Assembly (NCBI GenBank): GCA_016840165.1 | Contig: JAEOSU010000072.1 | Coordinates: 256,001 to 320,000, forward strand | DNA: 64,000 nucleotides | Reading direction: 5' to 3' | From: Promethearchaeota archaeon | GTDB taxonomy: Archaea; Asgardarchaeota; Lokiarchaeia; Sigyniarchaeales; SOKP01 | In this document: piece by piece, positions 6,271-10,235 of the stretch | How the letters are laid out: every line of letters starts with the position of its first letter | Position numbering within the stretch: position 1 is the stretch's first letter | Program-made: the position numbers and the translations under genes | Notes under the pieces: generated by a model | Told to the model about the DNA's origin: nothing | The model's database searches: none | The model's input: the letters and a program-made list of their open reading frames with translations, nothing else

Positions 6271-6401
6271 GTTTAAGTATAGTAGGATTATAGAGAATAT
6301 GATTATTCAAATTATAGGTGTCAAAGAGAATAATCTCAAAAATATTTATGTATCCATTAAAGATTAGGAAAGCTCAAATATATAGAAAAACTGAAAATAT
6401 C

Positions 6402-7016
6402 ATGGAAAACCTCAAAAAAAAGGATTTTGTACCTGAGAGTCTTGTTAATGAATCAATATCAAATCCAGAAATTCTAAAAGAATTAGTAAATAATCTACTC
6501 AAAAAGGAGGATACAATCAGGTATAATAGCCATAAAGTATTACTGTTAGTGAGCGAAGCTAATCCTGAGATCCTATATCCTGAATGGGTTTTCTTCGTTA
6601 ATCTATTAAAGAGTAAAAATAATTTTCATAAAGTAATTGGTATTCAAATTTTAGCAAATCTTTCTAAAGTTGATACTCTAAACAAATTTGAAAATATTTA
6701 TGATGACTACTGTGATTTACTTGATGCGAAAAGCGTGATGACGACAGCACATTTAGCAGCGAATATAGGTAAGATAGCTAAGAATAAACCAAACTTAAGA
6801 GAGAAGTTAACTCAAGTATTATTAGATATAGATAAAACTCATCATGAAATTGGTCGAAAAGATTTAATTAAAGCGTCAGTTATTGACTCTTTTACGGAAT
6901 ATTTCAATGAGATAAAAAATAAAGAAGAAATAATAAGATTTGTAGATGCGCAATTGAAGAGTAAAAGTCCTAAAACGAAAAAAAAAGCTGAAGAATTTCT
7001 TAAAAAATTTAAGTAA
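6402..7016 (+). CDS. HEAT/ARM-repeat protein (alpha-solenoid)
   Basis: Repeats such as DTIRYNSHKVL, HKVIGIQILANL and SPKTKKKAEEFL. ATG at 6402 is the likelier start than GTG at 6318. Confidence 0.55.
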   Translation: MENLKKKDFVPESLVNESISNPEILKELVNNLLKKEDTIRYNSHKVLLLVSEANPEILYPEWVFFVNLLKSKNNFHKVIGIQILANLSKVDTLNKFENIYDDYCDLLDAKSVMTTAHLAANIGKIAKNKPNLREKLTQVLLDIDKTHHEIGRKDLIKASVIDSFTEYFNEIKNKEEIIRFVDAQLKSKSPKTKKKAEEFLKKFK

Positions 7017-7081: not shown

Positions 7082-7489
7082 ATGAGAAATTCGCTACACC
7101 ATGCCCATCTATTTGCGACCAATGTTGATGAAAGCATTAAATTTTACAAAGAAATGTTTGGAGCTAAGTTATTATTCGATTTGGAAATGGCAGGAGCTCG
7201 AAATATAATGATTCAGATTGGAACATCAAAAATCAATTTCTATGATCAACCCCCTAAAGATCTAGGGCGAGGTACGATCCATCATTTAGGAATTGAAACT
7301 GATAATTTAGAAGCTCTCGTAGAACATATGAAGAGTAAGGGTTTTCAATTTAGGAAAGATATAAGAAGTTTTGGTCCTATGAAATATGTTATGGCAGGAG
7401 CTCCTGATAATGTACTTTTAGAGCTTTTTGAGGTAGTTAAAGATAAATTACCACAAGATCAATATGAATTAATATCATCATTGGACTAA
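7082..7489 (+). CDS. VOC family (glyoxalase/bleomycin resistance) protein
   Basis: LHHAHL...ESIKFYKEMFG, IHHLGIETDNL and APDNVLLELFE. Confidence 0.85.
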   Translation: MRNSLHHAHLFATNVDESIKFYKEMFGAKLLFDLEMAGARNIMIQIGTSKINFYDQPPKDLGRGTIHHLGIETDNLEALVEHMKSKGFQFRKDIRSFGPMKYVMAGAPDNVLLELFEVVKDKLPQDQYELISSLD

Positions 7490-7620
7490 TTATAAGTGAG
7501 ACTATTCTAATAAGAAATATTCAAATCAATACTATTTATAACTAATTTTCTAATTTAAAAATATCACAAAAACAATTATTACACCTCTAAAATGTTATAT
7601 TGTAAAAATTAGGATTTTTG

Positions 7621-7676
7621 TGAATAATTATTCATGTGTCACATCATTGTGACAGGATTGTGACAACATTTAAATA
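7621..7676 (+). promoter_or_regulatory. Operator array and TATA box upstream of actin
   Basis: Perfect palindrome TGAATAATTATTCA (7621-7634). TGTCACA (7637), TGTGACA (7648) and TGTGACA (7659) at 11-bp period. TTTAAATA at 7669-7676. Confidence 0.6.
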
Positions 7677-7795
7677 TTATAATTAGTTTTATCTTATTAA
7701 AATCAAATGCTGGAATAAATCTTTAGTTATTAATGTATTAAACAAGATCAGAGAAATTACAGGATATGTTGATTTAATTAAAACTTAATAGCCTA

Positions 7796-8986
7796 ATGAG
7801 AAATTGTAGCATTATACCAACAATAAGTAAAGTCATGGAGAATTATGATATGAAAGATATTAATTTTAAGAAAGCAATTATAATAGATAATGGAACAGGA
7901 ATCTCTAAGAATGGTTTTGGTGGTGAAGATCAACCGAGATCAGTTTTTCCAACTATGATGGGAACTCCAAAATACGGAACAGTAATGCCTGATGTAAAAC
8001 ATTTCTCAAGAGAGCATTATATTGGAGAGGAAGCAATGGAACTGAAAGGTCTATTGAATCTTAAATTTCCAATTGAACACGGGATTGTGGAAGATTGGCC
8101 TGCAATGGAAAGACTTTGGCATTATACTTTTTATACAGATTTAAGGGTTGATCCTTCAGAGTATCCAGTTCTTCTTACTGAAGCACCATTAAATCCTCGC
8201 CAAAATAGAGAAAAAATGGCTGAAATTATGTTCGAAACATTCAATGTTCCTGCGTTATATATTGCTATGCAAGCAGTCTTATCATTATATGCTTCAGGAA
8301 GAACTACAGGGACAGTAATAGATATAGGAGATGGAGTTTCTCACATCGTTCCAATTTATGAAGGATTTGCTTTAAGTCATGCGATAGAAAGGATTGATTT
8401 AGCTGGACGGGATGTAACAAAATATATGAAAAGATTATTGCGTCAGAATGGTTATTCATTTACCACTAGTGCAGAAACAGAAATTGTAAGAGATATTAAA
8501 GAGAAGTTGTGTTATGTTGCAATTGATCCTGAAAAAGAACTTTTACTTTCAAAGAAAGTTAGCGGTATGAATAAACATTACATGTTACCAGATGGAGAGA
8601 CCGTGAGTCTAGGCATTGAAAGATTTTTAGCACCTGAGTGTTTCTTTAATCCCTCAGTTATTGGAAAAGAATTAGAACCTATTGATGAACTTATTGTCAG
8701 TGCAATAACTGAGTGTGATGTTGATCTTCGAAGAGATCTTTATAGCAATATTGTTCTGTCTGGTGGATCTACAATGTTTCCTGGTATTAAAGAAAGAATA
8801 ATTAAAGAAATAAAAGAAATGATCTCTGAATCTGTGGATGTTAGGATCATCAGCCCACCCGAACGAATGTATTCCGTTTGGATTGGAGGTTCGATTTTGG
8901 GCTCATTAAAGACCTTTCATAGAATGTGGATCACAAGGCGAGAATACAAGGAATTTGGACCAACGATAATTCATCGTTGTTTCTAA
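7796..8986 (+). CDS. Actin (Asgard, close to eukaryotic actin)
   Basis: [93 protein letters not shown] and C-terminal IIHRCF. True start may be 7835 or 7850. Confidence 0.97.
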
Positions 8987-9032
8987 TAAAAGTATTATTT
9001 TTTTAATTTCCCTTAACGAGGAAAATAAAAAT

Positions 9033-10235
9033 ATGGAAAATGTAAGGAATAAAATTGAAAAATATCTTGATTCAGAATCGAGAATAATCTCTACCACAAT
9101 TATTGAAGAGAGAAATAAAATAGTATACACTTCAGATAATTGGGACATATCTGATGATTTAGACTCAATCAATTCCTTATGGGAGTTAGAGAAGCATGGA
9201 GAATTGATAGTTAATAAAATTAAATATAAAATTATACAAATGTCCTCTGAAAAATTAGTGGCTATGAATTTGGAAGGTAAAGGGAGTCTTATTGGTTTTA
9301 AAGATGATGAACGTAGAATTATCTCTAGAGTGGAACCAGGTGATGCTGCTTTTATAGGGTTAATGGAATCTTCGAGGACATTGGGAAGGCTTCGTAAAAA
9401 GGATCCTTATCTCGATCCTAATACTAAGTTAGGTAAAATAAACGATGTTATATGGGCAACACCAAAAGTGTTACTTAATGACACCTATAATTTACAGAGA
9501 TTAGGATTATTAAAAGTTGGATTAACCCTGGATGAGGCAAAAGTCTATTTAGCTTTACTACAAAGTGGTGAAGATGGAGAAAAAGTTGGAAATCTAAATA
9601 AACAATTGGAAATAAAGAGAACAACAATATACCGAATAATAGATCGATTAATAAACAAGGGATGGGTATATAAGTTAATGGAAAGACCAACAGGTACAAC
9701 ATTATATATAGCTAAGCCACTAAATGAATTTATCGATGACATTATCGAGGAAAAAGAAGAAGAACTAAGAATACTAAAGAGCTTCCGATTTGTGATGGGA
9801 GAAAGTTCAGAAAATGGTTGGATTGACTTTTCCAGAGAGAATGATACATTGGGATTGATTGGACTAGAGAAAGATTGTGGTCTGATTGTATTCGAATATG
9901 ATGAGATTGTTAAGGAAAAAGTGATTATTCAGGCTGCTTTACAATTATCCTATGAAAGATTAAAGAAACATTTACAACTGGATTCAAATGAAAAAAAAAA
10001 TATTAATCAGGACATTGAGGATATCAAAATTACGAATATTAATATAAATGAGTATTTTGGAGCTAATATGTATATTAGATTTAAAGAAGGGACAAAAAGC
10101 GCGAATAATGTGGGCAATGACTGGATTTTATTGACAAAACATGTCGCGATTCCTATTGAAGATAAAATTTATGTAATTTGGGGTTCTGAGGAAAAATTTC
10201 CAATATTATTAAGCATAATTTTAAAGATAAGATAA
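9033..10235 (+). CDS. Profilin-like domain fused to TrmB-type wHTH and an unknown C-terminal domain
   Basis: aa 1-120 match the Loki profilin pattern (IVYTSDNWDISDDL, IKYKII..SSEKLVAMNLEGKGSLI). aa 160-250 match TrmB (GLTLDEAKVYLALL, IKRTTIYRIIDRLINKGWV, YIAKP) followed by a coiled coil. Confidence 0.8.
   Translation: MENVRNKIEKYLDSESRIISTTIIEERNKIVYTSDNWDISDDLDSINSLWELEKHGELIVNKIKYKIIQMSSEKLVAMNLEGKGSLIGFKDDERRIISRVEPGDAAFIGLMESSRTLGRLRKKDPYLDPNTKLGKINDVIWATPKVLLNDTYNLQRLGLLKVGLTLDEAKVYLALLQSGEDGEKVGNLNKQLEIKRTTIYRIIDRLINKGWVYKLMERPTGTTLYIAKPLNEFIDDIIEEKEEELRILKSFRFVMGESSENGWIDFSRENDTLGLIGLEKDCGLIVFEYDEIVKEKVIIQAALQLSYERLKKHLQLDSNEKKNINQDIEDIKITNININEYFGANMYIRFKEGTKSANNVGNDWILLTKHVAIPIEDKIYVIWGSEEKFPILLSIILKIR

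Follow-up and report, generated by a model that had tools for sequence, protein, structure and literature searches.

A candidate TrmB-type operator at the promoter of an archaeal actin and profilin–TrmB cassette

An extra actin gene and a profilin–TrmB fusion gene

The window analyzed here, a stretch of 64,000 nt from a genome of the Lokiarchaeia, carries near its beginning an extra actin gene, followed on the same strand by a gene for a predicted profilin–TrmB fusion protein. A cluster of three heptamers lies in front of the actin gene, next to a TATA-like octamer. The features of this cassette, in window coordinates, are as follows:

7621–7634, no strand: perfect 14-bp palindrome TGAATAATTATTCA, 2 nt upstream of heptamer 1
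7637–7654, no strand: candidate distal operator, TGTCACA-TCAT-TGTGACA (heptamers 1 and 2), unique in the genome
7647–7666, forward: candidate proximal operator, TTGTGACA-GGA-TTGTGACAA (heptamers 2 and 3), at the canonical place of the family-wide operator
7669–7676, forward: putative TATA box of the cassette promoter, TTTAAATA, assigned from conservation
7677–7849, forward: region presumed to contain the initiation site and the long actin mRNA leader
7850–8986, forward: spare (cassette) actin gene, open frame from 7796 (Pfam Actin, E 8e-129)
8998–9004, forward: run of seven T in the 46-nt spacer between actin and fusion genes, a possible partial terminator or attenuator
9033–10235, forward: profilin–TrmB fusion gene, encoding the presumed binder of the operators

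The genome encodes its main actin on contig C77, and the spare actin shares 83% identity with it. The main actins of the genus are near-identical to one another, and the cassette actins evolve faster; a quick tree of the latter is compatible with a single origin, which it supports weakly. Alignment of orthologues indicates that translation most likely starts at ATG 7850 rather than at 7796, with GGAG some 10 nt upstream. The array had initially been annotated as lying upstream of actin, which is correct, the TATA box being 181 nt before this ATG. For most of the cassettes L075–L088, a GAGGTG Shine–Dalgarno sequence precedes an actin N-terminus at ATT TCA GTC AAC, without an in-frame NTG, which suggests that ATT serves as the actin start codon there. 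Public sequencing runs with matches were mostly DNA, with one metatranscriptome (5% share). One contig of 229 nt, from the metatranscriptome of a wetland, agrees with the cassette actin over 8366–8591 except for one mismatch, the promoter and leader falling outside its span; this is a weak hint that the cassette actin, or a near-identical one, is present in an RNA library.

The leader is 179 to 181 nt long in seven of the eight cassettes of the window's subclade (77 nt in L007), and leaders of about 170 to 215 nt occur in about half of all cassettes. A long AT-rich stretch seems to lie upstream of the main actin of the window genome (G000) as well, and this actin has a TGGAATA...AATC element in common with the window leader. 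A scan of 7480–7900 against Rfam gave no match, and a consensus fold of 18 long leaders gave no pairs. For some subgroups (leaders of L087, L093, and L094), a possible long-range stem, GGAATCAA...TTGATTCC, was spotted by eye. The short-leader cassettes have the TATA box just 63 to 77 nt before the actin start, which leaves no space for another promoter.

The spacer behind the actin gene extends from the stop codon (8984–8986) to the fusion start at 9033. T-runs of 7 to 13 follow the actin stop in most cassettes, and, judged from the sequence, the T7 run of the window may reduce the output of the fusion gene compared with that of actin and so set the ratio of actin to regulator. Elsewhere, the space between the two genes can hold a small ORF of about 65 amino acids (MVRIRIMDG...), found in L077 at 1490–1687 on the minus strand and in the gaps of approximately 230 to 400 nt of some 20 other cassettes from four genera (e.g., L075, L078–L088, L093–L095, and L102). 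Its conserved start is visible in about 16 cassette gaps, and the ORF is missing from the window with its 46-nt spacer.

In each of the 43 loci retrieved, the gene immediately preceding the fusion gene encodes an actin. Among 151 genomes of the order, the fusion was found in 46, and these belong to four genera of a single family. A phylum-wide sample of 301 genomes again confined the full-length fusion to this family, as it was found in none of the 232 genomes of 29 other families in that sample. The cassette was likewise found in none of 18 genomes sampled from two sister families, which hold three single-contig closed assemblies.

The genes upstream of the cassette vary between clades, which implies that the promoter module travels with the actin gene. 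The window has a gene of the glyoxalase/VOC family (7082–7489) between a HEAT-like ORF (6318–7016) and the cassette, and the HEAT-like ORF adjoins the cassette directly in the close relatives L004–L006 and L067–L069. From this comparison, the difference appears to be a local insertion or deletion.

A conserved inverted repeat beside the TATA box

Heptamer 1 (TGTCACA, 7637–7643) is separated by TCAT from heptamer 2 (TGTGACA, 7648–7654), and the two form a perfect 7-4-7 inverted repeat. Heptamer 2 is followed by GGAT, heptamer 3 (TGTGACA, 7659–7665), ACA, and then the octamer TTTAAATA. Successive heptamers thus start 11 bp apart, at 7637, 7648, and 7659. The positions that the initial annotation gave for the heptamers, the inverted repeat, the 14-bp palindrome, and the TATA box agree with ours to the base.

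The 18-mer inverted repeat, searched with up to two mismatches, gives two overlapping matches in the window against 0.10 expected, and with up to one mismatch, it occurs a single time in the whole genome (3.6 Mb, 31.6% G+C). The heptamer itself is rarer than expected genome-wide, with 114 copies against approximately 388 predicted from base composition, and nowhere else in the 3.6-Mb genome do two heptamers lie within 40 bp of each other. The cluster is thus nonrandom and unique within the genome.

The same arrangement recurs throughout the family. We compared 41 cassettes, that is, orthologous or paralogous loci with readable upstream sequence, and in all of them, across four genera, an inverted repeat is followed by a TATA-like octamer. 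A scan of the genome and of orthologous actin promoters for the motif, which the initial annotation had proposed, therefore returned both a single genomic cluster and the repeat at every readable cassette. Alignment of 39 sites yielded the consensus TTGTCAC-N6-GTGACAA, a 20-bp palindrome with a free spacer. The right half reads GTGACAA in 37 of the 39 sites and GTCACAA in the other two, and the left half, TTGTCAC, 11 bp upstream, is kept in 35 to 37 of 39 at its core positions. The octamer (TTTAAATA, TTTATATA, or CTTAAATA) begins 2 to 4 nt after the operator in 40 of 41 cassettes and 6 nt after it in L088, and in 38 of 41, the center of the proximal core precedes the TATA start by 7 or 8 bp. 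A genome-wide test of the position of TTTAWATA before ORF starts yielded just 148 confident starts, too small a number for a meaningful result. Taken together, this conservation indicates that the heptamer array is a real, deeply conserved control site beside the TATA box of the extra actin gene.

The window belongs to the three-heptamer variants, three cores being present in 11 of the 41 cassettes; most cassettes have a single plain inverted repeat. Its core centers are at −18 and −7 relative to the TATA start, and the proximal operator, formed by heptamers 2 and 3, has its left half flipped at the central base. Neighboring cores are 11 bp apart in 32 of 43 pairs and 21 to 22 bp apart in five. 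The units 7647–7657 and 7658–7668 agree in 9 of their 11 bases, so that heptamers 2 and 3 have the look of a tandem duplication of 11 bp, and an exact 11-bp tandem repeat is found in the operator region of a relative, L099. TGTSACA is palindromic except at its center, so that the middle heptamer would be able to serve both operators. These features point to an 11-bp duplication in the window lineage that produced two overlapping operators with a common middle heptamer, and operators in this family would seem to grow by duplications of one helical turn (11 bp). In the closest relatives, the distal repeat is TGTCGCA-N4-TGCGACA, which differs in both halves but is still symmetric; their proximal heptamer remains TGTGACA.

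The overlap bears on the proposal, made in the initial annotation, that the array allows cooperative binding over the BRE position. Because the two operators of the window share one heptamer, simple cooperative binding of two dimers side by side is doubtful on steric and geometric grounds, and cooperativity appears plausible only through arrangements of another kind.

A weight matrix built without the window's clade was used to scan the genome. Its three best scores genome-wide, 23.7, 19.9, and 19.6 bits, all lie inside 7636–7666, the proximal operator having the top score of the genome (23.7 bits) and the distal operator scoring 19.6 to 19.9 bits. The next score, 18.6 bits, falls inside a coding region. 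Neither the matrix nor the relaxed pattern TGTC-N10-GACA revealed a further promoter site in the window's own genome that would indicate a wider regulon. A TATA-like box adjoins none of the other relaxed sites. Four sites were inspected, namely the matrix hit next in rank and three relaxed sites; all four fall within what looks like coding sequence, and three of the four read as Cys-x-x-Cys motifs.

Across the order, the exact pattern TGTCAC-N6-GTGACA was found in 31 of 151 genomes, with one copy in each, and a reversed-pattern control gave no match in the 151 genomes. The site is the actin promoter of a genome where the fusion was found in 27 of the 31 cases and that of a cassette cut by a contig end in one, which brings the total on cassette promoters to 28. 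One more site has the same GTGACAAAG-TTTAAATA promoter form and lies 183 nt from a contig end. The genomes surveyed are related, so the co-occurrence of site and fusion is not independent evidence. The last two sites, L105 (G015:C4:5624–5641) and L107 (G101:C428:856–873), are orphans, in genomes where no fusion was found and with neither a TATA box nor cassette genes nearby; such sites could be remnants or be recognized by a profilin-less paralogue of the fusion.

The candidate regulator and alternative readings of the site

Sequence and model comparisons agree that the product of the neighboring gene is a fusion of a profilin with a TrmB-type winged helix–turn–helix (wHTH) domain. The profilin part covers approximately residues 3 to 120, the wHTH domain residues 160 to 229, a long helix residues 230 to 255, and an α/β domain residues 282 to 399. 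The first 120 or so residues match structures of Asgard profilins in a phmmer search (best 5zza, E 1.3e-8; also 7pbh, 5yed, and 5zzb). The best Foldseek match of the predicted model is the complex of Odin profilin with actin (E 3e-8, target TM score 0.78), Loki complexes also being at the top; in order, the 5zza and 5zzb complexes come first, followed by Loki profilin-1 alone (5yed). The fusion N-terminus thus resembles the stand-alone Asgard profilins (5zza, 5zzb, 5yed/5yee, and 7pbh) in both sequence and predicted fold, with the differences that a covalent link connects it to a DNA-binding domain and that its actin binding is putative.

Pfam assigns TrmB (PF01978) to residues 160 to 229 with an E-value of 1.6e-12 (47.5 bits, cut-off 25.6), and the model places the wHTH fold at residues 166 to 227, so that the TrmB domain is internal, not N-terminal. 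Helix 230–255 follows the wHTH domain in the model, where confidence drops below 50 from residue 247. Pfam found no domain in residues 250 to 400, and the C-terminal domain modeled alone (pLDDT 76.7) gave weak fold matches only (Foldseek best E 8e-3; VIA best Z 6.2). The recognition helix, KRT[T/H]IYRI, is invariant across cassettes, alongside the near-invariant half-site; its T/H variant showed no clean correlation with operator variants.

Profilin-less paralogues of about 300 amino acids with the same HTH and C-terminal domains (37 to 46% identity) occur in the same family, also in genomes without the cassette. The pattern TTGTC-N10-GACAA, with a background rate of approximately 12 per 3.6 Mb, was found within about 100 nt of the paralogue's own start in all 14 upstream regions fetched, which came from 14 genomes, cassette-free ones among them; this ties this HTH subfamily to this family of palindromes at two kinds of genes. 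The geometry differs from that of the actin cassette in that the paralogue promoters have a conserved TATA-like box upstream of the palindrome. This would be the classical geometry of autorepression, and the family appears to use both geometries. With the query used, no close paralogue of the HTH and C-terminal part of the fusion was found in G000, which makes the fusion the sole candidate of that subfamily there.

We consider it quite probable, from these comparisons, that the heptamer array is the operator of an optional, self-contained cassette of actin and profilin–TrmB genes in one Lokiarchaeia-type family, and most likely the heptamers are where the regulator from the gene immediately downstream docks. 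The initial annotation had read the array as the cis half of an actin/profilin–TrmB circuit. The presence of the motif upstream of all readable cassettes favors this reading of the heptamers, but the 14-bp palindrome next to them lies outside the conserved core.

The site could also be a real operator that is bound by a different factor encoded elsewhere, such as another TrmB- or MarR-type wHTH protein, with the fusion regulating something else or binding no specific DNA. At least eight other frames in G000 exceed the Pfam cut-off for TrmB, and the two orphan palindromes, in genomes without a detected fusion, are in keeping with such a factor. The idea is unparsimonious, however, as the single target per genome would have to travel with an optional cassette. 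Moreover, the closest paralogues of the fusion have the same palindrome family at their own promoters, and the query used found none of them in G000 that could act as the binder. We therefore regard a foreign binder as improbable. The best classical TrmB-HTH gene of G000 (C37:2809–3015, minus strand, in a frame of 286 amino acids) has a palindrome of its own upstream, TCCATA-N5-TATGGA, and is probably, to judge from that sequence, a separate autoregulated TrmB.

A second alternative dispenses with a dedicated regulator and takes the GTGACAA nearest the TATA box as an unusual BRE or an element for a TFB paralogue, the upstream repeats being mere duplications. GTGACAA does lie directly upstream of the TATA box, where a BRE would sit, and 11-bp duplications are frequent at cassette promoters. 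Yet the partner TTGTCAC, 11 bp upstream, is kept as a true inverted repeat, the element is present in a single copy per genome, unlike a basal promoter element, and the palindromes of the paralogues are at a different position relative to the TATA box. The main actin promoter, furthermore, lacks the motif and has an A-run instead of GTGACAA before its TATA box. Against this evidence, a basal element is very unlikely.

Least probable of all, and hardly worth retaining, is that the inverted repeat works as nucleic acid structure, either as a hairpin in RNA (or a terminator for the gene upstream) or as a cruciform in DNA. In its favor, the sequence could form a stem of 7 bp closed by a loop of 4 nt, both arms have changed together in close relatives (TGTCGCA/TGCGACA), and the module of those relatives begins about 15 nt after the stop of the upstream gene. 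The RNA fold of 7611–7680 is ordinary, however (z = −0.56; 59 of 200 shuffled sequences do equally well). Heptamer 3 has nothing to pair with, and the stem lacks a T-run behind it. The distance is fixed to the TATA box and not to the upstream gene (130 nt away in the window, and differing by clade). Comparison of the four genera, finally, shows a variable "loop" between arms that keep their sequence instead of covarying, and conserved arms around a variable spacer are the signature of a protein-binding palindrome and not of a hairpin.

Possible control of the actin promoter

If the heptamers are the operator of the fusion protein, a dimer of its TrmB-type winged helices, joined by the helix that follows them, would read two successive major grooves of the palindrome. 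The right half of the operator would cover the position at which the BRE is normally recognized by TFB; in the window, the right half of the proximal operator overlaps the BRE position. The bound dimer would thus control recruitment of TBP and TFB at the actin promoter, and the fusion would thereby also control its own gene, through read-through of the T-run, although this run may uncouple the expression of actin from that of the fusion.

The position of the right half-site over the BRE favors occlusion of TFB and hence repression. Activation through recruitment of TFB from just upstream of the TATA box would, however, be nearly as likely, since the whole site is upstream of the TATA box and the geometry of the paralogue promoters differs. 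TrmB proteins bind palindromes as dimers via two adjacent major grooves, and sites that overlap the BRE and TATA box or lie downstream of them repress, whereas upstream sites activate (PMC4158304, PMC4706686). On the basis of half-site spacing, promoter placement, and the presence of a cognate regulator gene, the element of the cassette would class as a TrmB-type palindromic operator.

The closest known motif for comparison is the TGM, TATCAC-N5-GTGATA, of TrmBL1 from Pyrococcus furiosus and Tgr from Thermococcus kodakarensis (PMC4158304, PMC4706686). The two have in common a TCAC...GTGA core, approximately one helical turn between half-sites, and a location near the BRE and TATA box. The cassette operator departs from the TGM consensus in one base per half-site (TGTCAC instead of TATCAC) and in a spacer of 6 rather than 5, and it is found at one actin promoter per genome, rather than at the dozens of sites of a sugar-metabolism regulon. 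Its presumed binder also differs from TrmBL1 and Tgr in having no recognizable sugar-binding domain and in carrying a profilin domain before the HTH.

TrmB of Pyrococcus and Thermococcus binds TACT-N3-AGTA over the BRE and TATA box at malE (the TM operon) and represses by hindering TBP and TFB (PMC4158304). The cassette resembles this system in that a local regulator is encoded in its own cluster and the operator, here a putative one, is over the BRE/TATA region. The sequence and spacing of the half-sites differ, and the target here is a cytoskeletal gene. The effector of TrmB at malE is a sugar bound at the C-terminal domain, whereas the candidate sensor of the fusion protein is its N-terminal profilin domain.

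That sensor leads to a speculative extension of the model, in which the profilin head makes DNA binding depend on how much monomeric actin is available, so that actin expression would be subject to feedback. Binding of monomeric actin (spare, main, or both) by the profilin head would alter occupancy of the operator and, through it, actin transcription. This inference stems from the identity of the profilin domain and of the target gene only, and we put it forward tentatively, as an idea with somewhat less than an even chance.

No known organisms are more closely related to eukaryotes than the Asgard archaea, and next to nothing is known of how they control their eukaryote-like cytoskeleton. 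A literature search found no paper on the profilin–TrmB fusion or the heptamer operator. Eukaryotes have in MRTF–SRF a G-actin-binding regulator that controls actin genes and works through nuclear import. The likeness to the cassette is a functional analogy only, the archaeal circuit being entirely inferred, and the components are not related to each other: RPEL motifs with a MADS-box partner in one case, and a profilin and a TrmB wHTH domain in the other, with no counterpart of nuclear import. Should actin sensing nonetheless prove true, the cassette would be an archaeal functional counterpart of the feedback between G-actin and MRTF–SRF, built from a bacterial-type regulator, and a case of actin feedback on an actin gene in a prokaryote. 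The fusion would, in any event, be a one-target regulator of the TrmB type that was repurposed by joining it to a cytoskeletal domain. With a short DNA site, a candidate regulator, and a target gene now defined, control of archaeal gene expression by actin can be tested in vitro.

The cassette promoters may hold further control sites upstream of the heptamers. The 14-bp palindrome of the window belongs to a pattern, TGAATA-WW/AG-TATTCA, that is present in all eight cassettes of the window's subclade (L003–L007 and L067–L069), always 2 nt before the first heptamer; TGAATA-N2-TATTCA is missing from the cassettes outside this subclade. It is not enriched in the genome, where it has four copies, 60 composition-matched palindromes ranging from 0 to 7. 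Because this frequency is within the control range, the case for the palindrome comes from its conservation in the subclade only, and a second regulator may bind there. The other three genomic copies (G000 C8:50891, C63:37800, and C81:2523) all read TGAATAAATATTCA. At the equivalent upstream place, L090, L096, and L097 have other perfect palindromes, GTGGGAT-N4-ATCCCAC, TGTCCATA-AA-TATGGACA, and GTGAT-N6-ATCAC, which suggests a second control site that varies by lineage.
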